Of a DNA stretch of 64,000 nt, positions 4,790 through 47,819 are shown piece after piece; within the stretch, counting starts at the first letter, position 1, and each line of letters begins with the position of its first letter. Source of the DNA: an uncultured Nitrospiraceae bacterium. GTDB lineage: Bacteria > Nitrospirota > Nitrospiria > Nitrospirales > Nitrospiraceae. The stretch lies in the NCBI GenBank assembly GCA_963726635.1, contig CAVSCZ010000013.1, positions 24,677 to 88,676 on the forward strand. The letters run 5' to 3'. The notes under the pieces were generated by a model. The model searched no databases and was not told where the DNA came from. It saw nothing but the letters and a program-made list of their open reading frames with translations. A program made the position numbers and the translations under genes.

Positions 4790-4878
4790 GACGAACCTCC
4801 TACCTGCTTGTAACTCCACAATACATATACTTATGACTGGTATACTTGACACATTGGCCAAAAAAATATTTCGCCTCG

Positions 4879-7094: not shown

Positions 7095-7124
7095 TTGACA
7101 AACTGTGTCAATTTAGTTTATTAA
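7095..7124 (+). promoter_or_regulatory. candidate sigma-70 promoter with overlapping inverted repeat (TTGACA-N5-TGTCAA)
   Basis: TTGACA at 7095-7100, an 18-nt spacer, then TATTAA at 7119-7124. The -35 hexamer is the left arm of the perfect inverted repeat TTGACAAACTGTGTCAA (7095-7111). It lies in the AT-rich divergent intergenic region, 66 nt upstream of the yezD-like start. Confidence 0.35.
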
Positions 7125-7189
7125 ATTAATCACGATACTTGATCGGATATATGTACATTGATTGGCTTGACGAAAAGGAACCTCTGAAC

Positions 7190-7414
7190 ATGAGCACCCA
7201 ACAGCGAGCGATTCAGAGCCAACAGCACAACCAGGACATCGCGCACGAGATTCTGCTCGCCATCAAGGACCTGCGCTTCGGATCGATGGAAGTCGTCATT
7301 CACGACTCAAAAGTGGTCCAGATCGAACGCAAGGAAAAGATCCGCTTCGATACCCTCAGTCACAACCACCACAGTGAGGGATCTATGACGATCCAGCGTT
7401 GTTGTCGCAGCTAA
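7190..7414 (+). CDS. YezD-family small protein (DUF2292)
   Basis: MSTQQRAIQ...LRFGSMEVVIHDSKVVQIERKEKIRF matches the DUF2292 signature (G-S-v-E-i-v-I-H-D-g-k-V-v-q-I-E-r-k-E-K-i-R). An AAGGAA RBS precedes ATG 7190. Confidence 0.75.
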   Translation: MSTQQRAIQSQQHNQDIAHEILLAIKDLRFGSMEVVIHDSKVVQIERKEKIRFDTLSHNHHSEGSMTIQRCCRS

Positions 7415-7523
7415 CAGTCGTCGCCGTCCAGACCGCTGGATGCCTGTGCCTTCCCGTTCCAACACATCAATCTCAGGACTGACCGAATCACCGGAAGTTC
7501 CGACAATACGAAGGGGAAACGAC

Positions 7524-9141
7524 ATGAGATTGTCCGGTTTGTTTGTTCGCACCATTCTGGGTGTCGCCTTGCTGGCCAGCGCGTCACCCGCACTGGCCGT
7601 CGAGGAAGGCCAACTGGTGAAGAAAGAAGGCAAGTGGGAGTACTATTCCGGCGAAGACCCGGGCTTGAAGTATCTCTTACCTGAAAGGAATGATCACCCA
7701 AGAGGAGTACGACAAAGGCCTCAAGGTGATCGAGACGAAAGAACGAGTCTCCAAGCCGAACTTCAATATCGACGTCAACAACGGCTTGAATATCCGCGTC
7801 GGAGAAAAGTTTTTCCTGAAACTCCGGCTGCTCACCCAGGTGCGTTACACCTACAGCACCTACAATTCCGCCTGGGGCACCATCGGAGACTCAAGAAATC
7901 CTGAGATCTTGGGAGGCCAGGTAGAATTTCGAGCCGTCAAACACCAGAGCGACTCAAGTCAATTCACCGTTCCCCGCGCGCGCCTCCAATTCATGGGGTA
8001 TGCCTTCGACCCGGACTTCCGCTACAACTTCTCCTGGCAAATGGATCAAACATCCTGGAATCAGGAGGGAGGCAGCGGAACAGCCAAACTCGTCGACGCA
8101 TACATCGCCTCCTGGCATATCCCGCTGGCAACGGTCCAGGTCGGTCAACAGCGGGTCTGGTTCAATCGTGCCCTCATTAGCTCGATTGCCACCTCAACCT
8201 TCTCGGACAATATGATCGTTCAGAACGCGTTTGCCGCCAACCTGGTCAGCAGTCGTGACATCGGGATCGCCATCCTGAGTGATGAGGATCAATACAAATT
8301 CAACTATGCCATCGGCATCTGGAACGGAACCGGGACCAACCTCACCCGAGAAGGCACCTCCGTCAGCCAGTCACTCCCCAACAACACCAGCATTCCCGCC
8401 GCCCAACGGCGAACGTACAACTATGACACCCGCTTCGGAACCAGCGAAATGATGTACACGGCTCGCCTGCTCTATAAAATCTCAGGCAATCCAGGATATG
8501 GGCAGGGAGACATCCTGAACTCACGCGTCCCCCAAGTGGCAATTGGAGCCGGGTATGCGTACGATCCGGCTCAAAACTACCTCAGCTCGATCAGGTCAGA
8601 TATTGTGGATCGTGCTTATCGTCAGAGCGTGACGAAGGCAGGCAACGGAAGGCTTCTGGGCGGAGGGATCTACGATTTCCAAACTACCGAAGTGGACTTG
8701 ATCGCGAAGTACCAGGGATGGTCCCTCCAAGCAGAAGGGTATTACCGGTTTCAGAACGTGCGAAACAGTGATTCGGGAACCATTCCGTTTGACCCTACTA
8801 CCGCTGTGCCCTTAGGACCGCCGGTGGAGCTTGGCGACGCCTATGGCTGGTACGCGCAGGTCGGGAAATACATCATTCCCCGAAAACTCGAACTCGCTGT
8901 CCGCTATGGGTTTATGGATCCTTCGACCAAGCAGACACATGATCTGACCAAGGAGTTCGGCGCCGCCATCAACTACAGCTTCGACGGCACCTACAACAAC
9001 CGGCTCGTCGTCGATTATTCCAATATCCACATGGGAAGCGGCGGGCGCGCACCGGACAGATTTCCATGGGAGAGCCTGCCAGGATTTGGCAGCGATCTCA
9101 TCGAGAACCGGATCAATGTGCAGTATCAGTTCTATTTCTAG
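7524..9141 (+). pseudogene. outer-membrane porin, porin O/P-like (copy 2) with one frame change
   Basis: ATG 7524 gives the signal peptide MRLSGLFVRTILGVALLASASPALA and EEGQLVKKEGKWEYYSGEDPGLKYLLPE. The continuation GMITQEEYDKGLKVIE...ENRINVQYQFYF* is in the +1 frame (ORF 7690-9141). Removing one A from the AAA run at 7684-7686 joins them. Confidence 0.8.
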
Positions 9142-9177
9142 GACGACACGAATTATTTAACCGTCAGGAGAACAATC

Positions 9178-10884: not shown

Positions 10885-12495
10885 ATGCGCGGCGCTCCCA
10901 CCGGTTGGTTTCGCCATCTGACGATCGGGAAAAAGTTTCTCCTGTCGTTCAGCCTCATTGTCACAGTCCTCATCTTCAGCCTGGCGGCCATCCTGGTCTA
11001 TCTCACCCGCGTCAACAGTTACGTCGATCGGCATCAGCGGATCACCGTCCCCGCCGTCGTGACGGCCGCCACGACGCAGCAGACGTTCTTCCACATGCTG
11101 GAGCAGGTCCACCATCTGGTTGAACATCAACCCCCTGCGGAACAGGTCGCCACGCTCGCCCGTCTTGAACAGATGCTGTCGCAGGCGACCACATCGATCG
11201 ACACCTATCGCACCAGTCATGCAGCCAGAACGCATCCCATCCTCTTCGGCATGTTGACGCAACACCAGCGGACGGACCTGGTAGACCTCGAAGACCGGAC
11301 GATGGACGACATCACCGCGGCCCTCACGCGCCTGTCAGAGTACCAACGGGCCATTGCGACGCAGCTCCCGCGCGCGACGCCGGACAAGAATCTGCTCTCC
11401 AACACCGCGCTCCAGTACGAACGCGCGATTCGTTCCCTCGAAACGGCCACCACGACCTTGATCGACGTTCACCGAAAGATCGACGGGGAAATGAAGCTCG
11501 AGGGCGATCGCCTCGTCAAGGAAGCGCGCCTCATCGTCCTGGTCCTGGTCTCAGTGTTGGGACTGCTGATCGTATTCACCTATCTGACTATGCGACGCTC
11601 CATCGCCCAGCCATTGCGCCGTCTCGCGGCTACGGCCGACCGTGTGGCCCATCACGACCTGACCGCGCAATTCGAGTCCTGGCCGAGCCGGGACGAAGTC
11701 GGCACGCTCGCGACCTCGCTATCCTCGATGGTGACGAACCTGCGCGAACGCACGGCGGCACTCACCCATAAAACCAGAGAACTCGAAGCCTTCACCTATT
11801 CGATTGCCCATGATTTGAAGGGGCCGTTGCGGGAAATTGAAGGTTTCTCCTCGCTGCTGGAGAAACAATTCGTAGACCAGGGCGACCCTCACGTCACGCA
11901 TTACATCGACATCATCAGGAAATCCTCGTTACGCCTCACGCATATGATCGATGCCCTGCTCAAGTATTCACGACTGGAACAGCAGGACCTCCCGCGTACC
12001 CGCTTCAACGTGTTGGAGATGATCAGCAGCCTGCTCGTCGACCGGCAGAGCCAGCTCACCGGCATCACACCTCAGATCACGGTCAATCTCCCCTTCGCCG
12101 ATCTGTACGGCGAACCGGTCAGCATCCGTCAGGCCTTGGTCAATCTGCTCGATAATGCCATCAAGTTCTCCCGCCATTCCCCGGCTCCGACTATCAACAT
12201 CGGGGGACTACAGGCGCCGACCGAACGTATCCTCTGGATACAGGACAACGGCATCGGCTTCGACGCCGACCAGAAGGAGAAGCTCTTCGGTCTCTTCGAG
12301 CGGCTGCACAATGCCCAGGAGTACGAAGGCACCGGCGTCGGCCTGGCCATCGTGAAGATGGTCGCGGACAAACACGGGGGCCGCGTCTGGGCAGAATCGT
12401 CGCCCGGCAAAGGCAGCACATTTTTTCTGGCGTTCCCGAATGGCCAAGAAGCTGTCAGCCTTCAGCTCTCAGCTTCGACCCTGAGACAAGACTGA
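10885..12495 (+). CDS. sensor histidine kinase (TM sensor, HAMP, HisKA, HATPase)
   Basis: HAMP segment (PLRRLAATADRVAHHDLTAQF...TLATSLSSMVTNLRER), H-box FTYSIAHDLKGPLREI, and N/G boxes LVNLLDNAIKFS, DNGIGFD, GTGVGLAIVK. An upstream ATG at 10828 is also possible. Confidence 0.85.
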   Translation: MRGAPTGWFRHLTIGKKFLLSFSLIVTVLIFSLAAILVYLTRVNSYVDRHQRITVPAVVTAATTQQTFFHMLEQVHHLVEHQPPAEQVATLARLEQMLSQATTSIDTYRTSHAARTHPILFGMLTQHQRTDLVDLEDRTMDDITAALTRLSEYQRAIATQLPRATPDKNLLSNTALQYERAIRSLETATTTLIDVHRKIDGEMKLEGDRLVKEARLIVLVLVSVLGLLIVFTYLTMRRSIAQPLRRLAATADRVAHHDLTAQFESWPSRDEVGTLATSLSSMVTNLRERTAALTHKTRELEAFTYSIAHDLKGPLREIEGFSSLLEKQFVDQGDPHVTHYIDIIRKSSLRLTHMIDALLKYSRLEQQDLPRTRFNVLEMISSLLVDRQSQLTGITPQITVNLPFADLYGEPVSIRQALVNLLDNAIKFSRHSPAPTINIGGLQAPTERILWIQDNGIGFDADQKEKLFGLFERLHNAQEYEGTGVGLAIVKMVADKHGGRVWAESSPGKGSTFFLAFPNGQEAVSLQLSASTLRQD

Positions 12496-12496
12496 A

Positions 12497-12527
12497 CACT
12501 GATGGCTGAAAGCTGATTGCTGAGAGC
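12497..12527. repeat. family A motif (GCTGATGGCTGAAAGCTGA type), short copy
   Basis: CACTGATGGCTGAAAGCTGATTGCTGAGAGC lies in the 39-nt spacer between the kinase and NtrC-like genes. Confidence 0.6.
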
Positions 12528-12534
12528 TAAACCC

Positions 12535-13878
12535 ATGCGCACACTCATCATCGACGACGAAGAATACGTTCGCTTGGTACTGGAGCAGGCACTCCGCGAG
12601 GAGGGCTGTGAGGTGACCGCCGTCACACATGGGGCAGCAGGCATCGAGGCGCTGCAGACCAGCACCTTCGAATGCGTCATCACCGATCTCCGTATGCCCG
12701 GCCTCGACGGTCGAGCCGTCTTGAAGTGGGTCCGCGAGCATCAACCCGATGTGGATGTCCTCATGCTGACCGGCCATGGCGACGTCAAAGACGCGGTCGA
12801 GGCGATCAAACAGGGGGCGTGGGATTTCTTAGTCAAGGATACGCCCTTCGAGGCCGCAGCGGTCAAAGCCGCATTGGCCAGGCTGAACACCGTGCGCGCC
12901 CTCCGCAAAGAGAACCTGGCGGCCCGGTATGGAGGCTTCACGCGCGATGTCATCATCGAAGGACCAAGCCAGGCCTGGCAGAAGCTCAAGATCCAGATTG
13001 CTCAGGTCGCACCATCTAACGCGGCTGTGCTCATTCAGGGAGAAACCGGCTCGGGCAAAGAAATCGCCGCGCGGCTGCTCCATGACCTCAGCCGGCGAAC
13101 CAGCGGACCGTTTCTCGCCGTGAACTGCGGAGCCGTGAGCCGGGAACTGTTGGAGAGCGAACTCTTCGGCCACGAAAAAGGCTCGTTTACCGGCGCGACC
13201 GCCGCGAAACCGGGCCTCATCGCCGCAGCCGAAGGGGGCACGCTCTTTCTGGATGAACTGGGCGAGATGCCGGGCCCGATGCAGGTGAGTCTGTTGCGCT
13301 TCCTGGATCGTGGCGAATACCGCCCCGTCGGCAGCACGCGTACGCTCCAGGCCAACGTCCGTGTTGTCGGAGCCACGAACCAGGACATCCAGGAACTCGT
13401 TCACCAAGGCCGCTTCCGGGACGACCTGCTCTACCGCATCAACACCGTCACCCTGCGCGTGCCTCCGCTCCGCGAGCGGAAGGAGGATCTTCCAAAACTT
13501 GCAGAGCACATCCTCTCGACCCTGCGCATTCCCGGAACCACGAAACGAACCCTCTCACTTGAGGCCGTGCAGGCACTTGCAGGCCACAGTTGGCCCGGTA
13601 ACGTACGTGAGCTGCGCAATGTTCTTGAGGGAATTGTGCTGATGGGCAATGGAACGGGTCCGATCAGTCGAGAAGAAGTCCTCGCGCTGTTGCCGAAAAC
13701 CCGGAGCACGTTTCAGACGGGAGATCACACGCACCTGTCCCTGGAGGAGATCGAACGCCTCCACGTCGAGCGCGTCCTCGACGCCAGCGGTGGCAACAAA
13801 ACCCAGGCGGCCAAGACCCTCCAGATCGATTACAAGACCCTGCTCACCAAGTTGAAAAAATACGACATGGGCAGCTAG
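12535..13878 (+). CDS. sigma-54-dependent response regulator (NtrC family)
   Basis: REC domain (LIIDDEEYVR...DLRMPGLDG), AAA+ sigma-54 interaction domain (GETGSGKE, ESELFGHEKGSFTGA), and C-terminal Fis-type HTH (GNKTQAAKTLQIDYKTLLTKLKKY). Confidence 0.9.
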   Translation: MRTLIIDDEEYVRLVLEQALREEGCEVTAVTHGAAGIEALQTSTFECVITDLRMPGLDGRAVLKWVREHQPDVDVLMLTGHGDVKDAVEAIKQGAWDFLVKDTPFEAAAVKAALARLNTVRALRKENLAARYGGFTRDVIIEGPSQAWQKLKIQIAQVAPSNAAVLIQGETGSGKEIAARLLHDLSRRTSGPFLAVNCGAVSRELLESELFGHEKGSFTGATAAKPGLIAAAEGGTLFLDELGEMPGPMQVSLLRFLDRGEYRPVGSTRTLQANVRVVGATNQDIQELVHQGRFRDDLLYRINTVTLRVPPLRERKEDLPKLAEHILSTLRIPGTTKRTLSLEAVQALAGHSWPGNVRELRNVLEGIVLMGNGTGPISREEVLALLPKTRSTFQTGDHTHLSLEEIERLHVERVLDASGGNKTQAAKTLQIDYKTLLTKLKKYDMGS

Positions 13879-14077
13879 CCCGATCAATCGATACGACATT
13901 CGATTGCCTCTCTCGATCACGGTTCCCCTCTCCTGGACCTACTTTACTTCTCATTGAGCTAGGGATATTCTCTCATGCCTGTTCGACCCTCTGTCCCGTA
14001 CAAGCTTGGAGCTACAGCCGGATGGGAGTCATGCCTGCCAACACCAACCTGCAACACATCTTCGGAAGGAGTCTGCC

Positions 14078-14881
14078 ATGTCACGACGTCTGTGCGCGCT
14101 GATCGTGCTTGCCATTGTCTTCGGTTCGACACCACTCTGGGCAGCCCAACTCAGCCGACCCCAGGTGGAATATTCGGCCGATTCAGTGATGCAAAATGAG
14201 GAAGGGACGATAGAACAGCATGTCTTCGTCACGCCTGCCAAGGAGCGCCGGGAAATGCTGACCGGTGCCGGCGATGGGTCGGTCCAAATCTTTCGTTACG
14301 ACAGCAAAGTGATGTGGATGCTGATGCCGTCAGAGAAAATGTACATGGAGAACTCGTTGGCGAAGGCCGCTGCCAAAGACGTCTCGCAGTGGGATGTTGA
14401 GGAGACCGTGATGGGCGAGGAGGTGTTGAACGACATGAAGGTCACCAAGTACAAGACCATTGCGACCAGCACCGACGGAAAGAAATATGGCGGCTTCTCC
14501 TGGCGGACGAAGGAGGGGATCTCCATCAAGTCCGATCTGCTGTACAAGGAAGGGAACGAGAAGAAACGGATGATGACAGAACTCAAGAACGTGAAGATCG
14601 GCAGGCAGGACTCCAAATTATTCGAAATTCCTGAAGGATACACGAAATTCGACATGGCCGGGATGATGGGCGGCATGATGGGCGGCCAGATGGGCCGTGA
14701 GGGCATGGGGCAACCGCCTATGGACAGACCCAGCTCAAGAAATAGACCCACGGTGCACCAGCCAGGCGGCACCGTGCCTCAGGAGAATGTTCCGGTAGCA
14801 CCGGAGCCGGAACCGCCTGCCGACGATCGATCCGATGTGCAGAAGGCCGGCGACATGATGAAGAAACTGTTCGGACGATAG
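14078..14881 (+). CDS. secreted protein with Met/Gly-rich C-terminal tail, family uncertain
   Basis: GGAAGGAG RBS and signal peptide MSRRLCALIVLAIVFGSTPLWAAQ. Low-complexity tail MAGMMGGMMGGQMGREGMG. A DUF4412-like assignment is only a guess. Confidence 0.6.
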   Translation: MSRRLCALIVLAIVFGSTPLWAAQLSRPQVEYSADSVMQNEEGTIEQHVFVTPAKERREMLTGAGDGSVQIFRYDSKVMWMLMPSEKMYMENSLAKAAAKDVSQWDVEETVMGEEVLNDMKVTKYKTIATSTDGKKYGGFSWRTKEGISIKSDLLYKEGNEKKRMMTELKNVKIGRQDSKLFEIPEGYTKFDMAGMMGGMMGGQMGREGMGQPPMDRPSSRNRPTVHQPGGTVPQENVPVAPEPEPPADDRSDVQKAGDMMKKLFGR

Positions 14882-19898: not shown

Positions 19899-22319
19899 CT
19901 ACTTAATCTGCTTGGCACGAGCCAGGGCCAGCGCCATGGCCATCGTGCCACCCGGCTGCGGCTGGCGCTCCGGAGCACGTTGAGACGCCGTCGGACGCCG
20001 GTCACTTTGGTCTCGTACCGCTCCCGCAAAGACTTCGACGGGCACGCGGCCTGAGGCCGAAGCACTGCCGGGCGCATCGTCGAGGCGCATGGTTAGAGAG
20101 ATCCGCTGGCGCTTCACATCGACATCCAGCACCTTCACCTTGACGATTTGTCCAGGCTTGACGACCTCATGAGGGTCCTTGATAAATTTATTTGCCAGCG
20201 CCGACACGTGCACGAGACCGTCCTGGTGCACACCGATGTCGACGAAGGCACCGAAGGCGGCGACGTTGGTCACCACGCCTTCGAGGATCATGCCGGGGTG
20301 CAGGTCGGTGAGAGACTCGATGCCCTCCTGGAATGTGGCCGTCTTGAATTCCGGGCGCGGATCGCGGCCCGGTTTTTCCAGCTCGGTCAGGATGTCACGC
20401 ACCGTCGGCACGCCGAACTTCTCATCGGTGAAGTCGGCGGGAGATAATCCCTTTAAAACCGCCGGCTGCCCCATCACGTCCGCGATACCTTTGCTGATGC
20501 GCGCCAGAATGCGCTCGACCACCGGATAGGCTTCCGGATGGACCGAAGAGCGATCCAGCGGATTGTCACCGTCGCTGATGCGAAGAAAACCGGCGGCCTG
20601 CTCGAACGTCTTGTCGCCCAGACGGGGCACCTTGCGTATCGTGGTGCGATTCGGGAAGGGGCCGTTCGCATCACGGTACTCGACGATGTTCTTCGCCAGC
20701 ACCTTGTTCAGACCCGACACCCGCTCAAGCAGCGGAGCCGATGCCGTGTTGACGTCCACGCCCACTGCGTTGACGCAGTCTTCGACGGTCGCATCGAGAG
20801 AACGCGCCAGCGCCCGTTGGTTCACATCGTGCTGATATTGGCCGACGCCGATCGCCTTGGGATCGATCTTCACCAGCTCCGCCAGCGGGTCTTGCAGACG
20901 CCGGGCGATGGAGACAGCACCACGCAGGCTGACGTCCAGCTCGGGAAACTCGGCCGCGGCGAAGGCCGAGGCCGAATAGACCGAAGCACCGGCTTCGCTG
21001 ACCACGATCTTGGCCACTTTGTGTTCCGGCTTATGAGCCGCGACCAATTTGATCACCTCAATGGCAAGCTTGTCGGTCTCCCGGCTGCCGGTACCGTTGC
21101 CGATCGAGATCAGTTCCACGCCATGCTGCACGACCAGCCGTGCCAGCGTCGCCAGCGATCCCTGCCAGTCATTGCGTGGCTGCAGCGGATAAATGGTCGT
21201 GGTCTCCAGCAGCTTGCCGGTCGCATCGACGACCGCCACCTTGCAGCCAGTGCGGATGCCTGGGTCGAGACCGAGTACGGCCTTCGGGCCTGCCGGCGCC
21301 GCCAGCAACAGCTCGTGCAGATTGCGGCCGAAAATCTTGATCGCCTCGGCTTCCGCTGCTTCGCGTAACTGCACCAACAGTTCCACCGTGAGATGCAGGT
21401 GCACCTTGACGCGCCAGGTCCAGTCGCAAACGCCCATGAGCCACTTGTCCGCGCGACGACCACGGTCTTCGATGCCGACATGCGCCGCGATCGTCGCGAT
21501 GCAGGGGTGCGGCACGACGGCTTCAAGTGCCTCGCCAAGGCCCAATTCAATCTTCAAGACACCCAGCGTGCGGCCACGGAACAACGCCAGCGCGCGATGA
21601 GAAGGAATAGTGCGGATGGTTTCGGAATAGGCGTAGTAATCACGGAACTTTTCTTCCTCGGCCATTTCCTGGCCTTTCATCACGGTGGACGTGACGACCC
21701 CCTGGTCCCACAGGCGGGTACGCAATTTCGCGAGCAGCTCGGCGGTCTCGGCAAAACGCTCGACCAGAATGTCCCGCGCACCCTCGAGCGCGGCTTTTGC
21801 GTCCGGCACGTTGATGGCCTCCACGCCGTCGGCGGCAGGCTTCACGTTCAGATACTTCGCGGCTTCCTGCTCGGGGTCGAGCGTCGGATCGGCGAACAGG
21901 GCATCGGCCAGCGGCTCCAGCCCTGCCTCGCGCGCGATCTGCGCACGCGTGCGCCGCTTGGGCTTGTAGGGCAAGTAGAGGTCTTCCAACGTTTGCTTGG
22001 TTGCGGCCGCCTCGATGGTGGCGCGCAGTACGTCGGTGAGTTTGCCCTGCTCTTCGATCGAAGTCAGAATCGCCGCGCGGCGCAGCTCCAATTCGCGCAG
22101 ATACTGCAGGCGCTCTTCCAACGTGCGCAAGTGCGTATCGTCCAGGTTGCCGGTGACCTCCTTGCGATAGCGTGCGATAAACGGCACGGTCGAACCTTCG
22201 TCGAGCAGGGCGACTGCAGCCGCGACCTGATGGGGTCCCACGCCGAGTTCCTTGGCGATGAGGGGAACAATCTTCAGCTGTGCCGCGGCTGAACCTGTCT
22301 GGGTCGTTGGAGAAACCAT
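19899..22319 (-). CDS. tex: transcription accessory protein Tex (S1 RNA-binding domain protein)
   Basis: 806-aa ORF with Tex N-terminal HTH ([17 protein letters not shown]), a YqgF-like core and a C-terminal S1 domain ([31 protein letters not shown]). Confidence 0.9.
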
Positions 22320-22897: not shown

Positions 22898-23163
22898 ATC
22901 AACCTCCCTGCATGCGAAAATCACTGCGACAGAGCCCACCTCGGCAGTCCGCCGGGACGCAAGTCTACTGTAAAAGCCCCCGCGTATCCACCCGCTCCGC
23001 ACCAAGACACACCACGCCACAGGACCGGGGCCGGTCAGTCGTCCGGCACCACGGAATAGGAGCGCCCGCGACGCGCTCGCGTTGACCCGGTATCCTGCTG
23101 AGCGTACAGTTGGGAACAGGGAGAGGGTGACAATCCTCTCCTGGGGACGGTTGCGGAGATAAC

Positions 23164-26100
23164 ATGAGCAACGAGAGCCGCGCAGGCCTGCTTGCCAACC
23201 CGTTGCCCATCGTGATGGTGGTGCTGCTGGCGGCCGGCGTGCTGGTCAAGACCTTGCCGCTGCAGAGCGCGCGCCCGACCGATCCCGAGCGCGTGAAGTT
23301 CGTGCCCACCAGCCAGCAAGACGTCGAGGCTCGGCTGTGGCAGGACCCATTCGCCGCTGTCGAGAAACACGAGAAGCAGTCCGACCAGTCCGACTTACCT
23401 GGCACGCACACCCCCGAGAGGCTACACGCACGCATTCAGGCGCTGCGCGACCCCGACCCTAATCGCCTGACCGTCGTGGCCGTAAGCGTCTTCGGCGGCT
23501 CCTTCGACGAGGCGGCCGAAAGCCGGCGCCGCACTCGCTTCGCGCTGGTCTCGGCGCTCGGCTTCCATGGCTATAGTCCCGAGAATGCCGACGCGATCGG
23601 CTACTTCCATATCACCGGGGCCAAACCCGACGCCGTCAAGCTGACTGTGCCATACGAGTGGTTCGAGCGCCGCAACGAGTCGTCGGATGTGCTGGTGCTC
23701 TGGCTGAACGAAGACAAGCTCGCCACTGAGCCGCTCACAAAGCTGCAAACCCTGTTCAGAAAGCTGACGCCGAGCCAACCAGCCAGCAGCGGCAAGGGCC
23801 TCACCGTCAAGCTACTCGGGCCGGCTGGCTCAGCAACGCTAATGAAGCTTGTCTCCGATATCAATAAGAAGAAGACACCGCAGAAACCCGCCATCGGATC
23901 GAGGGGCACCCCCATGATGCTGGAAGGCGGTAGTACGCTCCAGGTGTTCTCGTCTGGCGCAACCATCTCCAATTGCGATCTGCTCGCAGCAGGACCTACC
24001 CAGGCCAGCCCACAGCCGTGGGATTGCTTCATAGAGTCCCCCGACCTGGCGGACGGCCTGAACGCACTTCCGATCATCCGCACGACCGGCACCGACGACG
24101 TGCTCTCGGCCGCTCTATTGTGGGAACTGTGGCAGCGAGGCGTGAATCGCAAGGAGCCCCACAAGGATCAATGCGGGGACGGCCTGGTGCTGATCAGTGA
24201 GTGGGACACCGAGTACGGACGCACATTATCGCGATATCTCAAGGATGGATTCTCGGGGCGCTGCGGGGTCAACGCTGACGGGAAGGATGATGTGTCATAC
24301 GCCCATAAGCCGCCGGTACGCACCTTCACCTACCTGCGCGGGTTGGATGGCGTGCTTCCGGACATCGACAAGTCGGCCAGCAACGCGCCGCGCAAGGACG
24401 ATGGCGGCCAATCACAAGACCTGCGCGCGCAGCTCAAGGACACGCCGCCGGAGCACGCCGAGGGGCGCAGCCAGTTTGATTACCTGCGACGGCTCGCCGA
24501 CGAGATCGAGCAGCTCGATCACGAGAAGCAGTTTGCAAAGAACGGCGTCAAAGCGATCGGCATCGTCGGCTCCGACCTATACGACAAACTCCTCATCCTC
24601 CAGGCGCTGCGCAGCCGCTTCAAAGACAAGATCTTCTTCACGACAGACCTCGACGCACGCTACCTGCACGCTGACCAGAAGGACTGGGCGCGCAACCTCG
24701 TGGTCGCGTCCAACTTCGGCCTGTCGCTGCGCCCGGCGCTGCAGCATTCGACTCTACCGTTCCGGGACAGTTACCAAACCGCGACGTACCTTGCCGCGCT
24801 GATGGCACTCGACGCCAAGCCGTTCGACCACTGGGCCGGCAAGATGAAGGAGTGGCTGCGGCCGCAGATCTTCGAAATCGGCAGAACCGAGGCGGTGCAT
24901 CTCGCCTCGCCGTCTGTCCCCGACCTCACCGGATGGATCAACGGCACTAAGCCCCTAGGCATCGCCCCCCCAGCGACAGACACGAAATGCGATGGCGACT
25001 GGGCGCGGTGCGAAGACATCGAGCCGGCCAGGCCATCGCGGGGCCTCGCACTTGACCACCTTCCGGCAATGCTCTTCATGCTCTGCCTCGGCATCCTGTC
25101 GGTCGCCCTGGCGAGCCGCCGCGTCCAGGAGACAGCGCGCGCCGCGTGCAATGCACTGACTTCGCCCGGGCATGCGAAGAGGCAGGCCGCACAATTCGGG
25201 ATGATCGGCCTGGCTATGCTGGTGCTTACAGTGCTTGCGACGATCGTGATCGTCAACCAAGCCATGAATGCCTCACTCGCGCAGGGCGCCGGCGAGCCGT
25301 TCGTGTGGCTGGAAGGTGTCAGCGTGTGGCCGAGCCTCGTGGTGCGCTTCATCGGCGTCGTGATCACGCTTGCGCTCGCACTCGCATTCATGATTTGGAT
25401 TCGACTGCAAGCGCATTGTATCTCCGGGCGCTTCGAGTTCCCCCTGCCGCAAACCTGGACGCTCGCGCGCAGTTGGTGGTCCGCGGTGTGGACCGGCCCA
25501 CATCTTGACCTGGCGTCGTTCGACAGGGAGGGCAAGGCCGACTCGAAAGCCGCTGGTGCGGCAGTTGAAATCGTCACCTTGTGGCAGAACTACCTGCGTG
25601 CCACAAGCTGTCGTGAGATGGCGGGCTGGATCTTGTCCTCCATGCTGTTCGTAGGCCTGCTCAGCTTCGCAGCGTTCTCTGTCTTCGGCAGGCCGTCGTT
25701 TCCGCATCGCGGCCAGCTCGTCGAGAGGCTGCATGAAATTCTCGTGGTCCTCAACACGCCGATCCTCTGGCTGGTCATTTTCTGGGTCGGCTACGAGACG
25801 CGCGCCTGCGCCCGGTTCATCGAGACCCTGAGCGACGTGCCAAGCCTGTGGCCGACAGTGTTACTCGATCGCGAGGAAGCCGCGACCGGCGTGCCGCGCG
25901 CGCATCTCGACGACTACCTCGACTTCAAGCTGATCGTCCTCGCCACGCAACGCATCCACTGGCTCATCTACCTGCCGTTCGTCTCGATCCTCTTCATGGT
26001 GCTCTCGCGGAGCGACCTCTTCGACACGATGGACTTTCCTCTGGCGCTGGTCTTCGTCACAGGGCTCGCGCTCGCGTATGCGCTGTACAGCGCGGTGCTG

Positions 26101-26403
26101 CTGCGCAGGAGCGCCGAGTCGGCGCGCGCCACGGCGCTCGAGCACTACGAGACGCGGCTGCTCACACAGGCCCGGGCGAAGGACAACCCGCCGCCGGCTA
26201 CAGCCGAGGCTGCAGCGGCAAGTCCGGCCCGACAGCCGATCAGCGCGGAACAGATCAAAATCCTGATGGAGCGCATCCGCAGCACCCATGAGGGCGCGTT
26301 CGCGCCCATCGCCCAGCAGCCTGCGCTGCAGGCGCTGCTCTTGCCATTCGGTGGCTACGGCAGCGTCCAGCTCATCGATTACCTGATCAACCTCAAGGTG
26401 TGA
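23164..26403 (+). CDS. orphan 1079-aa multi-pass membrane protein of unknown function
   Basis: Uninterrupted 3.2-kb ORF with an N-terminal TM (PIVMVVLLAAGVLV). A ~600-aa soluble region has alternating beta-alpha-like blocks (LTVVAVSVFGG, VKLLGPAGSATL, LVLISEWDTEYGR, AIGIVGSDLYDKLLILQALR). The C-terminal ~440 aa has about 7 hydrophobic segments. I recognise no catalytic or output motif. Confidence 0.8.
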   Translation: MSNESRAGLLANPLPIVMVVLLAAGVLVKTLPLQSARPTDPERVKFVPTSQQDVEARLWQDPFAAVEKHEKQSDQSDLPGTHTPERLHARIQALRDPDPNRLTVVAVSVFGGSFDEAAESRRRTRFALVSALGFHGYSPENADAIGYFHITGAKPDAVKLTVPYEWFERRNESSDVLVLWLNEDKLATEPLTKLQTLFRKLTPSQPASSGKGLTVKLLGPAGSATLMKLVSDINKKKTPQKPAIGSRGTPMMLEGGSTLQVFSSGATISNCDLLAAGPTQASPQPWDCFIESPDLADGLNALPIIRTTGTDDVLSAALLWELWQRGVNRKEPHKDQCGDGLVLISEWDTEYGRTLSRYLKDGFSGRCGVNADGKDDVSYAHKPPVRTFTYLRGLDGVLPDIDKSASNAPRKDDGGQSQDLRAQLKDTPPEHAEGRSQFDYLRRLADEIEQLDHEKQFAKNGVKAIGIVGSDLYDKLLILQALRSRFKDKIFFTTDLDARYLHADQKDWARNLVVASNFGLSLRPALQHSTLPFRDSYQTATYLAALMALDAKPFDHWAGKMKEWLRPQIFEIGRTEAVHLASPSVPDLTGWINGTKPLGIAPPATDTKCDGDWARCEDIEPARPSRGLALDHLPAMLFMLCLGILSVALASRRVQETARAACNALTSPGHAKRQAAQFGMIGLAMLVLTVLATIVIVNQAMNASLAQGAGEPFVWLEGVSVWPSLVVRFIGVVITLALALAFMIWIRLQAHCISGRFEFPLPQTWTLARSWWSAVWTGPHLDLASFDREGKADSKAAGAAVEIVTLWQNYLRATSCREMAGWILSSMLFVGLLSFAAFSVFGRPSFPHRGQLVERLHEILVVLNTPILWLVIFWVGYETRACARFIETLSDVPSLWPTVLLDREEAATGVPRAHLDDYLDFKLIVLATQRIHWLIYLPFVSILFMVLSRSDLFDTMDFPLALVFVTGLALAYALYSAVLLRRSAESARATALEHYETRLLTQARAKDNPPPATAEAAAASPARQPISAEQIKILMERIRSTHEGAFAPIAQQPALQALLLPFGGYGSVQLIDYLINLKV

Positions 26404-26564: not shown

Positions 26565-26984
26565 CTATTGCCGGTCAAAAGCCTCGTTCAGAAGTCGATC
26601 CGCCTTCGTGATGAACTGATTCGTGCGATGCACATGTTGATACCGCACCTCTTGAAACACACGCTCCAAGTCTTTCACCCTCTGCCAGAGAGCCCGCAAC
26701 TCCTCGTTCTTCAAACGGTAAGCCCCGGTCATCTGATTGACCAAGAGTTCACTGTCCGAATAGCAGACAACTCGTCGCCGTGTGTATGCCGCGCAAAGTT
26801 CAAGTCCTTTGATCAGAGCACGGTATTCAGCCCTGTTGTTTGTGGCATGGCCAATACACTCCGCACAGGCAAGCAATTCGCGATGTTCTGCATCCATGAT
26901 GATCACGCCAATGGCTCCAGGTCCTGGATTGCCACGACAGCCCCCATCCGTGTAGAGCTGAACTTCATCAATCAAGTGCGCCAT
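26565..26984 (-). CDS. rnhA: ribonuclease HI
   Basis: YTDGGCRGNPGPGAIGVII, NNRAEYRALIKGLE and SDSELLVNQM give the RNase H DEDD pattern. 139 aa. Confidence 0.85.
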   Translation of the reverse strand: MAHLIDEVQLYTDGGCRGNPGPGAIGVIIMDAEHRELLACAECIGHATNNRAEYRALIKGLELCAAYTRRRVVCYSDSELLVNQMTGAYRLKNEELRALWQRVKDLERVFQEVRYQHVHRTNQFITKADRLLNEAFDRQ

Positions 26985-27106
26985 GGGGCGGGACTATAGC
27001 ACAGCTCTGCCTCGCTTCAAGGTGAGGAGCTCTACAGACGTCCTCTCACTGAAGCAGAGGATAGGGTTTCTGAACTCTGCTCCTGTATCAAGCGCCACCG
27101 GCCGCG

Positions 27107-28216
27107 TTAGCGCGTCCTGGTTGAAGCGCCTATTAAGCCGTAAGTGAGTATTCTTCTGGTGTAAGCGACGTAAAGCCCTTTGAGGCCAAGAGCCCGCCGT
27201 TCAAGAAGATGCCAGGACATTACAGCAAACAAAAAGGTTGGAAAGGCCGAGAGGACTAGCAGCGACAAAACCGAGACTCCGGGAACCAGTGCCGCAACTG
27301 ATTGCTGGACAGGAAAGGCATAGATATAGACGCCGTAGGAGTAATCGCCTACCTGGTTGTATTTCCTGACGAGCCCGGAAGGCATGTAGGCCACATACAA
27401 TACCGTATAGGCAAAGGTCAGCACATAGACGACGAAGAATGCTTGTGTGTTGACCATGGCCGAGGACAGAAGCGTGACCACACACAACCAGAAACACGGA
27501 CGAGAGAGCGTGATGCGTTCTTTCAGAACATAAAAGGCGGCACCGGAAAAAAACATGAAAAAGAGCATGGTAAATTGATCGTCGGGAGGACGGTGGAAGT
27601 GACGAGCAACAACGAACACTCCGGCCACAACGGCAACGGTGACAATGGCTGGTCCAAATGTTCTTACGCTGCCTCTCTTTGTTATTCGAAAGGCAGCCCA
27701 GACAACAGCCAGGATTGCGTACATGCGTACTTCAAATGGCAGCGACCACAGCGAACCATTGACCGCATTCTTAAATGGGTTGTTATCAAAGACTCCCGGC
27801 AGGTTGTACGCAACGCCGGTGACGACGGTTGCGCATTTCAGCAAGTACCCATATGTCTGAGAGTCAGCGAGATAGGATGACAAAGGCCATGACGTAAAGA
27901 GCAGACCAAAGCCGAACACGGTCACGAGCAGCATGACCAGCAGAGCCGGGAATATTCTGAGGATTCTGGCCCACAGAAATTGAAGCACGCTCTCTCTGGT
28001 CAACAGACTGGCCGTGACGAGAAACCCGCTCGTCACGAAAAACACATCCACAGCGATTGAACCCATGGTCATGCCAAGACTGCTCCGAAACGGCTCGGCA
28101 GCGCCCGTCCCTATCGCCAAGGCAAAGCTGTGGGTTATCAATACGGCAAGCGCCGCGATGATACGGATCAGGTTGAAATTATTGTCTCTACCTTGAGTGA
28201 AATTCGACAATTTCAC
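27107..28216 (-). CDS. acyltransferase family 3 membrane protein (OafA/YrhL-like)
   Basis: Motifs NFNLIRIIAALAVLITHSF and VDVFFVTSGFLVT with about 10 TM segments. Start placed at GTG 28214-28216; a longer ATG start at 28408 is possible. Sampled lines are about 48-52% G+C, clearly below the neighbours. Confidence 0.8.
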   Translation of the reverse strand: MKLSNFTQGRDNNFNLIRIIAALAVLITHSFALAIGTGAAEPFRSSLGMTMGSIAVDVFFVTSGFLVTASLLTRESVLQFLWARILRIFPALLVMLLVTVFGFGLLFTSWPLSSYLADSQTYGYLLKCATVVTGVAYNLPGVFDNNPFKNAVNGSLWSLPFEVRMYAILAVVWAAFRITKRGSVRTFGPAIVTVAVVAGVFVVARHFHRPPDDQFTMLFFMFFSGAAFYVLKERITLSRPCFWLCVVTLLSSAMVNTQAFFVVYVLTFAYTVLYVAYMPSGLVRKYNQVGDYSYGVYIYAFPVQQSVAALVPGVSVLSLLVLSAFPTFLFAVMSWHLLERRALGLKGLYVAYTRRILTYGLIGASTRTR

Positions 28217-28503
28217 AGACAAGTCCCCCGCGTCTAACAATGCATGACCTGGTTCCGGATAAGAGGTCGGGTACAAAACAAGATCTGTACGATATCCTGC
28301 CAGGAGTAAGGCATTCGTCCAAGTGATTTCGCAGAGATTCCTCCCCGTTTTGAAACCGCACAAGCCCCTGACTGAAAACCATCCAGCATCCACGCAGAGC
28401 GAACGCACGCGACATGGCAGCCTTGCGGGAGGCCGCGTGAACAGCCTCCTAGATCTCAGACGGAGACTCCGCTACACTTCTTTGCCTTGAGAAGGAGAAA
28501 CCG

Positions 28504-44555: not shown

Positions 44556-47500
44556 CCCGCGCCGCCCTCAAAAATCCCTACGCCGTCTTTGCCATCTGCA
44601 TGATCGCGCTCGTCCTCGGAGCCGTGTCCTATCAAAAGATGCGGGTGGACATTTTCCCTGAGATCAAGATCCCGACCATTCTCGTGACGACGTTCTACCG
44701 CGGACTGAGCCCCAGCGAGATGGAAGGGGCAATCACACTCAAGATGGAGCAGCGCTTTGTCGAAGCGAGCTATGTCGAACATATCGAATCCCAGTCGCTC
44801 GCCGGCATGAGCTACATCAAAGTCTTCTTCCAGCCTGATTACAGCATCGATTCGGCCCAGTCCGAACTGACCAGCCTGGCCTACAGCATCATTCGCCTGC
44901 TCCCGCCCGGCGTATTTCCCCCCTCCGTCTATAAATTCGGCGTCGCGAGCTTGCCGGTGGGACTCCTCTCCGTGAGTAGCGAGACGCTTGGGAGCGAAAG
45001 AGATTCGGGACCTGGCCTACTTCACCGTGCGCCAGCAGATCGCCACCATCCCCGGCATTTCGTTCGGCCCCCCGCTTGGCGGGAAAGTCCGGCAGATCAC
45101 CGTCTTCCTCGATCAGCAAAGGATGATGGCGCGTGACGTGTCCCCCTCGGACGTCGTCAAAGCCCTTAATTCCCAGAGCGCCATCATCCCGGCCGGCAAC
45201 ATGAAGATCGGCGATCTGGATTACTACGTCTATTCGAACAGCCTCATCGATGTGGTCGAGAAGATCAACGACATCCCCATCAAAATCGTGAACGGCACGC
45301 CGATCTTCGTGCGCGACATCGGCACGGCCTCCGACTCGGCTGCCATTCAAACCTCCATCGTGCGGGTGAACGGCCGCGAGGCCACCTATATCCCCATCAC
45401 GCGGCAGGAAGGGGCGAATACGCTGGAAGTGACGGACGGGATTCGTGCCAAGCTGCCGAAGCTGACGGAGATTCCCGCCGGCACCACGGTCAAATTCATC
45501 TACGACCAATCGCTCTATATCCGGCAGGCCATTGCCAATCTGCAGAAGGAAGGGCTGCTGGGGGCTGCGCTGGCCGGCTTGATGATCTTCCTGTTTCTCA
45601 GCAGCATCAAAGCGGCGCTCGTCGTCGGGTTGGCGATTCCCCTCTCGCTCACCACCGCGCTCGTCGCGCTCTATTTGACCGGCCAGAGCGTGAACATCAT
45701 GACGCTCGGCGGGTTGGCGCTCGTGATCGGCACCTTGCTGGACAACAACATCGTCGTGCAGGAAAACCTGCATCGCCATTTGGAGATGGGCAAAGACGGC
45801 CGCTCTGCTGCAGAAGACAGCGCGACCGAGCTGACGCTGCCGATTCTCGTCGCTACGATCTGCATCCTGATCGTGTACCTCCCCATCATGTTCTTCACCG
45901 GCATCATCAAATATCTCTTCGTGCCGCTCGCCATGACCGTAGCCTTTGCCATGCTCGCAGACTATGCCGTCTCGATGTCCGTGACCCCGGTGCTCCTCGC
46001 CCGCTTTTACCAGAAGGGCCATGGCGGGAACGGCACGGACGAGAGCTCTGCCTCCACCGGCTGGTTCCGCTTTGTTCTGGCGCTCTATACCCCGCTGTTG
46101 CGGGGAGGCCTGCGCCTCAAGCCGGTCGTGATCGGCCTGGCCCTCCTTGCGCTCATCGGCACCGCAGTCCTCCTGGTCCCCCGCCTGCACACGGAGTTCT
46201 TCCCGCGGATCGACGCGGGCAATTTCACCATCAATATCTCGGCGCCTGAAGGATCGCGGATTGAAAAGACGACGGCGATTGTGGCGCAGATTGAAAAGCT
46301 GGTGCAGGAGACCATTCCCAAAGATGACCTCGAAGAGGTCATCTCCAACACCGGACTCTATTTCGGCGATGCGGCCCGCTTCGCGCCGAACACCGGCAAC
46401 CACACGGCCTTTGTGCTCGTGAACCTCGTGACGGGGCACCAGGGCCATAGCGACGAGTACATCACCCGGTTACGAACCAGGTTGCGCGAATCATTACCAG
46501 GCGTCGAGGTCTCATTCCAGACCGGCGGCATCATCAGCGATGTGCTGAACTTCGGCCTGCGGGCGCCGATCGACATTCAGGTGAAAGGGCCGACGCTCGA
46601 CATCATTCGATCGGTGGCGGAAGAGATTCAACAGAAAGTCGCGCGCGTGCCCAACACGGTGGATGTGCGGATCAAGCAAGGCAAGAGCTACCCGGAGATG
46701 CACCTCGACGTGGATCGCACCAAGGCTGCCTACTACGGCATCGCGCAGGATCGCGTGATCGTGGACGTGATCACCGGCATCAGTTCAAACATCGCGTTGA
46801 GCCCCAACTATTGGCTCGATCCAAAGACCGGTAACGGCTACTACTTGCTGGCGCAGTATCCGGAACAGTCGCTGACCTCAACCGAGGATCTGCTCAACAT
46901 CCCGATCATCGGCGCCCGCACGCCCCTGCGTTCCACATCCTCGCTGACCACAACCGGCGCGAGCGGCTCGACCATGGCACTCCAGAACACGCCCTTTGCC
47001 GGACGCCAAATGGAGATGTCCAGCGGCTTCTACGGTCCCGGAGACGAGCGGCGGGGACCTCCGGTGCTCCTCCGGGATGTGGCTGCCTTGTCGTTCAAGA
47101 CCGGCCCGGATTCCGTGGACCACTACGACCTGTCGCGCTTGATCGACGTGTTGATCACACCTGTCGGCAACGACCTGGGCCACGTCGCGAAGGACATTGA
47201 ACAGGTCCTGGCAACCATCCAACTCCCGAAAGACGTGACGCTGCAGCTCCGTGGCGAAGTCGCCAACATGCGCTCGGCCATCGGCAGTTTCGCGCTCGCG
47301 CTGCCGCTCGCCGTACTGTTGATCTATCTCGTGATGGTGGGACTGTTCCGGTCCTTGATCGATCCCTTAATCATCCTGGTGGCTGTTCCGCTGGGCTGGA
47401 TCGGCACGGTGCTGTTGCTGCATCTGACCAACACATCGGTCAACGTGGAATCCATGATCGGCACGCTCATGATGATGGGCATCGTGGTCTCCAACAGCAT

Positions 47501-47819
47501 TCTGCTGGTGGACTATGCGAATCGCCTGGTGCGGGCGGGGGCCACGGCGGAACAGGCGGTATTCCAGGCCGGCACCCACCGCATTCGCCCGATTCTGATG
47601 ACGGCCCTCGCGACGATTCTTGGATTGCTGCCGCTGGCGCTGGGCTTCGGCGAAGGCAATGAAACGATGGTCCCCTTAGCCCGCGCCGTCGTCGGAGGCC
47701 TCGCGGTCTCCACCATCATGACGCTGCTCGTGGTGCCGGTGATGCATGCAATGGTGTTGGGGCGACGCGTGCATCTCATCAACTCGCCGACACCGGCCGC
47801 TTCTTCAGAGGAGATCTAG
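44549..47819 (+). pseudogene. RND efflux transporter permease (AcrB/CzcA family) with one frame change
   Basis: MLTRAALKNPYAVFAICMIALVLGAVSY...LLSVSSETLG, then KEIRDLAYFTVRQQIATIPGIS... for 943 more residues. Removing one G from the GGG run at 44990-44992 gives SETLGAKEIRDLAYF and one ~1089-aa ORF. Confidence 0.9.

Follow-up and report, generated by a model that had tools for sequence, protein, structure and literature searches.

What might a bacterial membrane protein do that carries a large soluble domain and a block of membrane helices but no recognisable output domain? The question is raised by the longest open reading frame (ORF) in 64,000 nucleotides of DNA from an uncultured Nitrospiraceae bacterium (GenBank assembly GCA_963726635.1, contig CAVSCZ010000013.1, positions 24,677 to 88,676 of the forward strand; this whole stretch is called the window below). 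The ORF, 23164..26403 on the plus strand, starts with ATG and, in the list of ORFs, codes for 1079 amino acids followed by a stop codon; it is intact, as a first-pass annotation of the sequence had stated. That annotation took the product for an orphan that could be a ligand-gated channel, a transporter or a receptor of a new type. We favour the first of these options. The product may be a single-polypeptide ion channel gated by a periplasmic Venus-flytrap domain, a reading to which we give a probability of about 0.3.

The protein family and its periplasmic domain

The ORF is a real gene of a real family and not an orphan, because thousands of full-length homologues exist. A word-indexed search returned 1860 homologues. 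When 1.84 billion cluster representatives were scanned exhaustively with HMMER, 3959 clusters (50% identity) matched at E ≤ 1e-3, 1975 of them at E ≤ 1e-30. Nearly all of these clusters are 1000 to 1200 residues long and align end to end. The start methionine coincides with the starts of the homologues, and M1 is nearly invariant. No extra domains were found in longer members (1245 to 1505 residues). The word orphan thus fails for homologues, which are abundant, and holds for annotation, as there is no family model.

Searched against Pfam (2025), NCBIfam (June 2026), PADLOC and the PDB sequences, the 1079-residue protein had no significant match, in agreement with the earlier remark that no kinase, cyclase, ATPase, protease or nuclease motif is visible. 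Profile searches of the PDB sequences with three different alignments returned only noise. For the whole protein, clear homology to a characterised family was not found, nor was there a record of an identical protein. Names given to members by the source databases are 'hypothetical protein' or unsupported automatic labels. In the searchable literature and the current family libraries, we found no description of the family or of the combination of a flytrap with such a membrane module. The sensor represents a known fold in divergent form, and the membrane module belongs at best to a known, poorly understood superfamily.

By Kyte–Doolittle hydropathy, the protein begins with one hydrophobic segment (TM1, residues 10–28), followed by a hydrophilic stretch of 604 residues (29–632), seven further hydrophobic segments (633–651, 679–697, 726–744, 823–841, 859–877, 930–948 and 962–980) and a tail of 99 residues. 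This agrees with the one N-terminal transmembrane (TM) helix, about 600 soluble residues and about seven further TM segments read from the sequence before. Five lysine and arginine residues lie in the loop after the first of the seven segments (652–678), which fits the cytoplasm, and none in residues 698–715; from this distribution, the large domain is periplasmic. The positive-inside rule would place the N terminus of TM1 in the cytoplasm. We take the topology of the first eight hydrophobic segments as established.

Structures were modelled with AlphaFold2 (AF2) and compared with those in the PDB using Foldseek. The full-length model (pLDDT 70.9) has a regular alternation of β-strands and α-helices from about residue 100 to 600, as had been surmised, with a disordered and variable insert at about residues 396–428. 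Its best match, at E 2.5e-5 and a TM-score on target of 0.57, was 4q6b, a binding protein with leucine bound. Together with 4mlc, 5ere, 3n0x and 3lop, this structure belongs to a group of leucine/isoleucine/valine-binding protein (LIVBP)-type matches at E 2.5e-5 to 5e-4 and a probability of 1.0; TM-scores on target were 0.49–0.58 for 4q6b, 4mlc, 3n0x and 3lop. Further matches included full-length mGlu2, the amino-terminal domains of NMDA and kainate receptors, and many sugar-binding periplasmic-binding proteins (PBPs). At the level of the predicted structure, the large domain is confirmed as a type-1 PBP (Venus-flytrap) fold, so the earlier guess of such a fold was borne out by structure and not by sequence.

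Pfam PBP models (Peripla_BP_6, ANF_receptor, Peripla_BP_5 and others) did not match the window protein at E ≤ 10, and among 136 diverse members they gave a single Peripla_BP_3 match at E 0.15 and nothing else. Comparison with LivJ and LivK by hhalign was not significant (E 0.1) and global alignment was useless; a sequence link to the LIVBPs was rejected. The sole hhalign segment placed 'RTIGTDD...SEWDSxYARTL' on LivJ 'RTTGLDS...HDKQQYGEGLAR'. Written for the family, 'RTxGxDD...SEWDxxYGR' on LivJ 'RTTGLDS...HDKQQYGEG', this non-significant local alignment pairs Y351 with LivJ Tyr202, which we take to be a ligand-stacking residue. In amino-acid-binding flytraps, Ser, Thr, Tyr and acidic residues at strand ends contact the ligand in the cleft between the lobes. 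The flytrap of the window protein has the strand-end motifs GPAGS, SSGAT, SEWDTEYGR, GSDLYDK and FFTTDLDAR, and in the AF2 model the conserved residues S222, T267, Y351, D471 and D474 come after strands. By analogy, these motifs are reminiscent of amino-acid-type binding sites and may serve as a lead.

Between the flytrap and the membrane lies a linker with a pair of cysteines, C609 and C616, that are nearly invariant in one alignment (A1) and are found in the consensus of a diverse set (A3). Their place just ahead of the helix at residues 633–651 fits a periplasmic position.

For a binding protein, the flytrap is unusually conserved. Among 327 full-length sequences, 63 positions are at least 95% conserved, many of them D, E or R; R37, P38, R57, L58, W59, D61 and P62 of the juxtamembrane segment reach the same level. 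Conserved Asp, Glu and Arg residues in a periplasmic domain could also form a catalytic or metal site, which would make the protein an envelope enzyme or assembly factor comparable to membrane-anchored transferases. We consider this very improbable. Weak matches to GT-B glycogen synthases appear far down the Foldseek list (probability 0.25), and the Nitrospira moscoviensis gene lies ahead of a GH8/BcsA-like cellulose synthase gene; however, the PBP matches are much stronger than any enzyme match, no enzyme family was detected in the libraries searched, and the cellulose-synthase neighbourhood is not conserved.

The fold is also the starting point for another explanation. Type-1 PBPs are chiefly components of transporters, and the best structural matches are binding proteins of ABC transporters. 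The window protein could be a solute transporter with a fused binding domain, in which the flytrap hands solute to a helical module that acts as a secondary carrier or uniporter. Some databases automatically name members TRAP small permease or MnhF, names that lack a supporting domain match. The bearing of the membrane half on this explanation is given below.

The membrane module and the ion-channel reading

The membrane half (residues 600–1079) was modelled from an alignment of 90 sequences reaching 20–30% identity, and the AF2 model was confident (pLDDT 85.8, pTM 0.84). It consists of helix Ha, the helices S1–S6 and a C-terminal element (Table 1). Foldseek against the PDB gave no match at E ≤ 1e-3. 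All matches with a TM-score above 0.2 were seven-transmembrane ion channels (7TMICs), namely the insect gustatory and odorant receptors (GRs and ORs) Gr43a, Gr64a, BmGr9, AaegOR10 and AgamOR28 (E 0.07–4; TM-score 0.21–0.36). Gr43a matched at E 0.074 and a probability of 0.91, with TM-scores of 0.30/0.35 over 420 aligned columns. The remaining matches were designed helical repeats or unrelated helical proteins at a probability of ≤ 0.15. Folds of G-protein-coupled receptors (GPCRs), rhodopsins and transporters were absent or at noise level, with no GPCR among the top 50 Foldseek hits. In profile searches, an orexin receptor and an opsin came up at E 0.9–2.8, which is noise.

Members of the 7TMIC superfamily have been reported in bacteria and archaea, and hallmarks of the fold have been listed (Himmel et al., bioRxiv 10.1101/2023.08.30.555482). 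According to the same study, most true positives had poor Foldseek E-values, sequence-profile similarity is commonly undetectable among 7TMIC families, the N-terminal part is variable and the S5–S7 region conserved, and prokaryotic candidates were kept only if they had exactly seven predicted TM segments (bioRxiv 10.1101/2023.08.30.555482). Because of this last filter, a fusion protein like the 1079-residue product would have been missed by earlier screens.

The predicted module shares several of these hallmarks. In the AF2 model, its outer, periplasmic loops (14, 9 and 12 residues) are shorter than its inner, cytoplasmic loops (58, 24 and about 45 residues). Helices S4, S5 and S6, with 41, 32 and 48 residues against 26–36 for S1–S3, are long and extend into the cytoplasm, a feature read in the predicted secondary structure only. 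A split TM7 is approximately reproduced: helix 1028–1040 is followed by a conserved break of 12 residues and by a terminal helix (1053–1078) that is interrupted at PFGGYG. The C-terminal element is a candidate split TM7 (7a/7b). The conservation profile is likewise similar to that of 7TMICs, S1 being variable (0.78 bits) and S5, the 7a–7b linker and the tail being conserved.

The tail, which had caught the eye as conserved-looking, is among the best-conserved parts of the protein, and its family-wide motif leaves just 2–8 residues before the stop codon in essentially all members. The last 27 residues have a mean Kyte–Doolittle hydropathy of 0.85 and about 1.7 charged residues, compared with hydropathies of 1.7–2.7 for clear TM segments. 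These values are compatible with, rather than proof of, a pore-lining or re-entrant element. A K+-channel-like 'GYG' filter in the tail was considered and rejected, as the motif reads GGFS or GGxGG or is missing across subfamilies. Separately, Pfam Peptidase_S66 matched the concatenated tails of 12 members at E 1e-5 to 5e-7; the score adds up sub-threshold matches, no single stretch being significant. The match pairs the family tail (residues 1044–1079, nucleotides 26293–26400) with profile positions of about 50–91 in the N-terminal domain of LD-carboxypeptidases, a strand-loop-helix with 'GGYG'. It is probably a short convergent motif, and would offer an alternative reading of the tail in which it does not cross the membrane.

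Several results weigh against a 7TMIC fold. The structural match is weak (TM-score 0.30–0.36, rmsd about 10 Å) and lies below the usual thresholds for the same fold. The clearly hydrophobic helices alone give a seven-helix block with its N terminus outside and its C terminus inside (N-out/C-in), the opposite of 7TMICs; for the N-in/C-out topology of 7TMICs, Ha would have to be an extra linker helix, with S1 beginning at residue 674, and the tail (1053–1079) would have to cross the membrane. In the AF2 model, the tail is two short helices around PFGGYG and not one long helix. An hhalign comparison of a 339-sequence profile of the membrane module with a profile of 16 Drosophila GRs (sequences from the supplement of PMC9998090) gave E 0.37, and hmmsearch with a GR hidden Markov model against 374 family sequences gave only weak matches in scattered registers. 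In three independent sets of about 45 members, Pfam 7tm_7 scored one hit per set (E 0.0061, 0.11 and 0.0047). We treated these marginal matches as noise; the model could not be located in nine likely members, nor, for one set, in the membrane modules of the 41 remaining members when these were concatenated, a format that may cost about 2 bits of sensitivity. Mean-field direct-coupling analysis (338 sequences; Meff 231) was too noisy to place the tail and was discarded, its control having failed: the top pairs did not exceed random pairs in depth consistency (0.17–0.20 against 0.15).

A search of BFVD structures with the membrane module gave nothing significant. The only viral structure resembling the module was A0A1V0SCD1, an uncharacterised protein of 440 residues from Catovirus CTV1 (probability 0.84, TM-score 0.34/0.37, E 0.5), which might be another 7TMIC-like protein.

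The distribution of conservation, measured in the same 327 sequences, is informative about where the protein acts. The periplasmic loops are highly conserved (EL1 2.66, EL2 2.34 and EL3 2.39 bits), as are the second flytrap lobe (2.3), S5 (2.18), the 7a–7b linker (2.38), the tail (2.14) and the ARLWQDP segment (2.0). The least conserved parts are S1 (0.78 bits), Ha (1.05) and the cytoplasmic loops (0.2–1.1, the lowest 0.23–0.76). This argues that the protein works on the periplasmic face and in the membrane, where conservation is concentrated, and not on a cytoplasmic signalling surface; no cytoplasmic domain was recognised.

This pattern bears on the idea of a transmembrane receptor without enzymatic output, an analogue of class C GPCRs whose cytoplasmic tail motif (GAFxPxxQQP...LLPxGGxGG..EYL) would recruit or release a partner encoded elsewhere. 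The architecture of flytrap, Cys-containing linker, seven helices and tail, in N-out/C-in orientation, is that of class C GPCRs, and full-length mGlu2 (7e9g_S) aligned with the full-length model over 1046 columns (E 1.1e-3). Moreover, the tail is no clear TM segment by plain hydropathy, and could be a conserved cytoplasmic docking motif. Yet the mGlu2 match has an rmsd of 32 Å and is driven by the flytrap, no GPCR-type seven-helix fold is among the matches of the membrane half alone, and, the tail aside, it is the cytoplasmic loops that are least conserved while all periplasmic loops are highly conserved. We regard a receptor of this kind as possible but doubtful.

For a transporter with a fused binding domain, the conserved periplasmic loops and juxtamembrane segment would be apt as a docking or hand-over surface. 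On the other hand, the transporter structures among the Foldseek matches of the membrane half, 7pqx and 9g2t (ABC exporters), 7ccs and 9h76 (LAT/APC) and 6s3k (KimA), scored a probability of ≤ 0.04 and a TM-score of ≤ 0.13, and no transporter family of Pfam or NCBIfam was matched. The module has no obvious inverted repeat; judged from the predicted helix pattern, its seven helices appear to lack the two-fold internal repeat of typical secondary transporters, and its long cytoplasmic helical extensions are unusual in carriers. Such a transporter seems rather unlikely to us.

All three functions put forward at the outset, channel, transporter and receptor, are compatible with the findings as a whole. 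The modelled resemblance to insect GRs and ORs lends the channel option weak, independent support, the sequence-profile tests having been negative. In the flytrap-gated channel that we favour, the N-terminal signal anchor would set the flytrap of about 570 residues, a type-1 PBP domain of LIVBP-like fold, in the periplasm. The flytrap would bind a small solute and its lobes would close. Closure would be relayed through the Cys-containing linker, helix Ha and membrane-proximal elements (the ARLWQDP segment and the three periplasmic loops) to a seven-helix module that, in the model, has the helix-length pattern of 7TMICs, with long S4–S6, cytoplasmic extensions and a split C-terminal helix. If the analogy with 7TMICs holds, the modules would assemble into an oligomer, probably a tetramer, whose pore would be lined by the conserved tail (S7b), and ligand binding in the periplasm would alter ion flux across the inner membrane. 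In this scheme we infer the 7TMIC-like fold, the oligomerisation, the pore function and the class of ligand. A more general proposal, that the whole family constitutes a bacterial 'ionotropic receptor' in which a periplasmic Venus-flytrap gates a tetrameric channel of 7TMIC type, two ancient modules not previously seen together, is one that we put forward only tentatively.

Gene context and distribution of the family

The coordinates of the gene, of its parts and of its neighbours are collected in Table 1. In a scan for sigma-70-like consensus sequences, the one site found, where 0.0 were expected from shuffled sequences, lies 54 nucleotides 5' of the ATG. A scan for an intrinsic terminator of the gene detected none.

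Table 1. Features of the 1079-residue protein, its gene and the flanking genes in the window
Feature	Residues	Nucleotides	Strand	Basis and remarks
Sigma-70-like promoter candidate, TTGACC-17 nt-TACAGT		23082..23110	+	Consensus match only, no sign of function by itself
Shine-Dalgarno-like GGAG		23155..23158	+	Read off the sequence; 5 nt ahead of ATG
Coding sequence, member of a large unnamed protein family	1079 aa + stop	23164..26403	+	ORF list and homologues
TM1, N-terminal signal anchor	10-28	23191..23247	+	Kyte–Doolittle peak 2.35; AF2 helix 13-29
Periplasmic juxtamembrane segment, motifs PLxSxRP and ARLWQDP	29-70	23248..23373	+	Conservation
Periplasmic Venus-flytrap domain, type-1 PBP/LIVBP-like	~100-600	23461..24963	+	AF2 and Foldseek
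Periplasmic linker with Cys pair C609, C616	601-632	24964..25059	+	0.72 bits apart from Cys
Ha, TM pass from periplasm to cytoplasm	633-651	25060..25116	+	Hydropathy 2.23; AF2 helix 630-650 (21 aa)
S1-S6 of membrane module	674-1007	25183..26184	+	AF2
S1	674-707 (34 aa)			AF2
S2	722-757 (36 aa)			AF2
S3	816-841 (26 aa)			AF2
S4	851-891 (41 aa)			AF2
S5	916-947 (32 aa)			AF2
S6	960-1007 (48 aa)			AF2
C-terminal element: S7a, linker GAFAPxxQQP, moderately hydrophobic tail PALQALLLPFGGYGSVQLIDYLINLKV	1028-1079	26245..26400	+	AF2 and conservation
S7a, short helix	1028-1040 (13 aa)			AF2
Terminal segment, two helices around PFGGYG	1053-1058 and 1065-1078 (26 aa)			AF2
Tex-like gene, beyond the 166-aa ORF		19899..22319	-	62.9% G+C
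Multi-TM ORF, divergent from the 1079-aa gene	166 aa	22520..23020	-	ORF list; without Pfam match
RNase H gene, convergent with the 1079-aa gene		26565..26984	-	Pfam RNase_H/RVT_3
Acyl_transf_3 gene, downstream		27107..28408	-	Pfam; 52% G+C

The genes called on either side of homologues were inspected in Nitrotoga, Nitrosomonas, Nitrospiraceae and Nitrosospira, and the ORFs from 86 loci were clustered all against all. No neighbour was conserved across genera in about 90 loci: recurrence is confined to single lineages, and the largest recurring clusters (12 and 11 loci) come from one Nitrosomonas clade. Because no neighbour recurs outside single lineages, the protein seems to be complete in itself, which suits a channel that works alone better than a receptor dependent on a partner. 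Among the close relatives in Nitrospiraceae there are two (loci L006 and L021) in which the gene does lie directly downstream of genes for a histidine kinase and a sigma-54 response regulator, all on one strand, an arrangement that would suit a receptor; but this context occurs in close relatives only, not in the window, and no partner gene is conserved alongside. A gene standing alone would also be compatible with a secondary transporter, although neither an ATPase nor any other transporter subunit is conserved nearby.

The window is syntenic with Nitrospiraceae contigs for the Tex, DnaJ-like and SpoU genes, which points to a Nitrospiraceae genome as its source. Both immediate neighbours named in the first-pass annotation, a divergent gene with four TM segments and a convergent rnhA, were recovered (the 166-residue ORF and the RNase H gene of Table 1). 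The 166-residue ORF has about four TM segments and a 'HAHFNLLGW' motif, and it is not kept beside homologues of the target. The RNase H and Acyl_transf_3 genes (26565–28408, minus strand) have a G+C content of 52–53% compared with 64% for the target, the acyltransferase gene being near the 50% reported before, and they lie between the target and the DnaJ-like/SpoU pair. On the Nitrospiraceae contig of L006, DnaJ-like and SpoU come directly after the target homologue, with only an ORF of 55 residues between. The block looks like a local insertion in the genome of the window.

The 1079-residue gene itself has 63.8% G+C, with 81% at third codon positions (GC3), in a window of 57.7% G+C, and 20% of its 60-nucleotide lines are at 70% G+C or more. 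The figure of 70–75% given earlier was a sampling effect. Comparable values occur elsewhere in the window, which contains many intact ORFs of 150–940 residues: Tex has 62.9% G+C and the ORF at 44988..47819 a GC3 of 82%. The composition of the gene is high and not anomalous, and it is no mark of a foreign gene; the foreign origin hinted at from an extreme G+C content was rejected, as 63.8% G+C and 81% GC3 are inside the range of other window genes.

An association with defence systems or mobile elements was also rejected, there being no PADLOC hit, no phage record and a single megaplasmid record. The latter, the only one among 72,556 plasmid records, is the 1.8-Mb megaplasmid NZ_CP039340.1 of Ralstonia pseudosolanacearum UW386, and because it is the only hit, the gene is rare in Ralstonia. 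This genetically tractable plant pathogen carries an intact copy of 1039 residues with all motifs (L088, 5908–9027).

Some loci have features of their own. In Nitrosospira briensis (L090), two members of 1093 and 1057 residues lie in tandem on the same strand (2415–5696 and 6001–9174) and both match the whole length of the family profile. Rescanning with the family profile found this tandem paralogue pair (hhalign E 3e-161) as the one case in 90 loci; it could form a hetero-oligomer in that species. In Nitrospira moscoviensis (NZ_CP011801.1; L079, about 11200–14548), a long ORF directly downstream of the homologue reads, from the translation only, like a glycoside-hydrolase-8 region fused to a BcsA-type cellulose synthase with a QxxRW motif and a PilZ-like C-terminal end, and this arrangement is not kept in other loci. 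The contig of a homologue with 84% identity (P0001; L089, 1–5376) has genes of a contractile injection system (phage sheath, T4 baseplate, Pvc16_N and AAA ATPase) 2.6 kb upstream, on the strand opposite to that of the homologue; this set is absent around the target in the window. In four loci from Microflora Danica (MFD) metagenome-assembled genomes (L021, L038, L040 and L083), the homologous gene is split into two to four ORFs in different frames while being intact in neighbouring assemblies; the splits are more likely to be indel errors of assembly than pseudogenes.

In GTDB species genomes, 363 loci were recovered by two motif patterns alone. The closest relatives are in Nitrospiraceae (up to 74% identity), with an 84% match in a metagenome. 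Outside Nitrospirota, identity is 61% in Candidatus Nitrotoga, 59% in Nitrosospira and 46–54% in Nitrosomonas, and about 35% in a second Nitrosomonas subfamily. A tier at 28–32% includes N. moscoviensis, Nitrosospira briensis, Nitrosovibrio, Nitrococcus, Variovorax, Ideonella, Rivibacter, Accumulibacter, Methylomirabilota, Acidobacteriota and Verrucomicrobiia. Named members are mostly from nitrifiers, and there are others from Variovorax, Ralstonia, Acidobacteriota and elsewhere. The nearest relatives outside Nitrospirota are thus betaproteobacterial nitrifiers, while Nitrospira moscoviensis has only a 30%-identical version, and Nitrosomonas and Nitrosospira carry members of two or three subfamilies. 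Such a distribution may reflect either an ancient paralogy or an exchange between the nitrifier phyla.

Significance and comparison with known systems

The family comprises about 4000 clusters of strongly conserved proteins of about 1050–1150 residues with no model in Pfam, NCBIfam or PADLOC and no solved relative, so that defining it would improve the annotation of thousands of genomes. Cultured nitrifiers are among them: Nitrospira moscoviensis, Nitrosomonas communis, N. nitrosa, N. halophila, N. oligotropha, Nitrosospira briensis and Candidatus Nitrotoga. Several paralogous subfamilies are enriched in oxidisers of ammonia and nitrite, which raises the question of which solute they sense. 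If the protein is a channel, bacteria would be able to convert a chemical signal in the periplasm into ion flux or membrane potential with one protein. If, moreover, the channel is of 7TMIC type, it would be the third independent coupling of a binding-protein fold to a membrane signalling module, besides ionotropic glutamate receptors (iGluRs) and class C GPCRs, and the poorly understood 7TMICs of prokaryotes would gain a first physiological role open to testing, namely ion flux gated by a solute, in nitrifiers and in other Gram-negative bacteria of the environment. Should the channel reading be wrong, a conserved flytrap joined to a helical bundle without an output domain would be of interest all the same, as a receptor or transporter of new architecture.

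With LIVBP-type PBPs (Escherichia coli LivJ, 4q6b and ANF-receptor modules), the window protein has in common the two-lobed α/β fold, the periplasmic site and LIVBP-like signatures at strand ends (GPxxS, SxxAT, D..YG and GSD). Its flytrap differs from theirs in having about 570 residues instead of about 350, with inserts that include the disordered 30-residue loop, in being held covalently between TM helices and not free or lipid-anchored, and in being far more conserved than typical binding proteins.

The iGluRs, including GluR0, share the concept proposed here of a binding-protein fold that gates a tetrameric channel. Structural matches to them are limited to their LIVBP-like amino-terminal domains (5ipt_C, 9mzi_D and 5uow_C). 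Unlike iGluRs and GluR0, the window protein has no type-2 PBP split by the channel and no pore module of P-loop and M1–M3; its flytrap is followed by contiguous helices.

Class C GPCRs (mGlu2, CaSR and GABA-B) have the same order of parts, from flytrap through a Cys linker and seven hydrophobic helices to the tail. The linker of the window protein, however, has two conserved cysteines instead of a nine-cysteine domain, a TM anchor takes the place of the cleaved signal peptide, and its membrane module alone matches no GPCR. To our knowledge, bacteria do not have heterotrimeric G proteins.

Finally, the 7TMICs (Gr43a, Gr64a, BmGr9, Orco and other ORs, and bacterial members) have the only fold in the PDB that resembles the predicted membrane module. 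Common to both are short outer and long inner loops, long helices S4–S6, a short helix ahead of the conserved hydrophobic helix that ends the chain, and a C-terminal half that is more conserved than the N-terminal helices. In the window protein the tail is interrupted by PxGGxG; and whereas known 7TMICs bind their ligand within the helical bundle, it has an extra TM helix and a periplasmic sensor of 600 residues ahead of the module.

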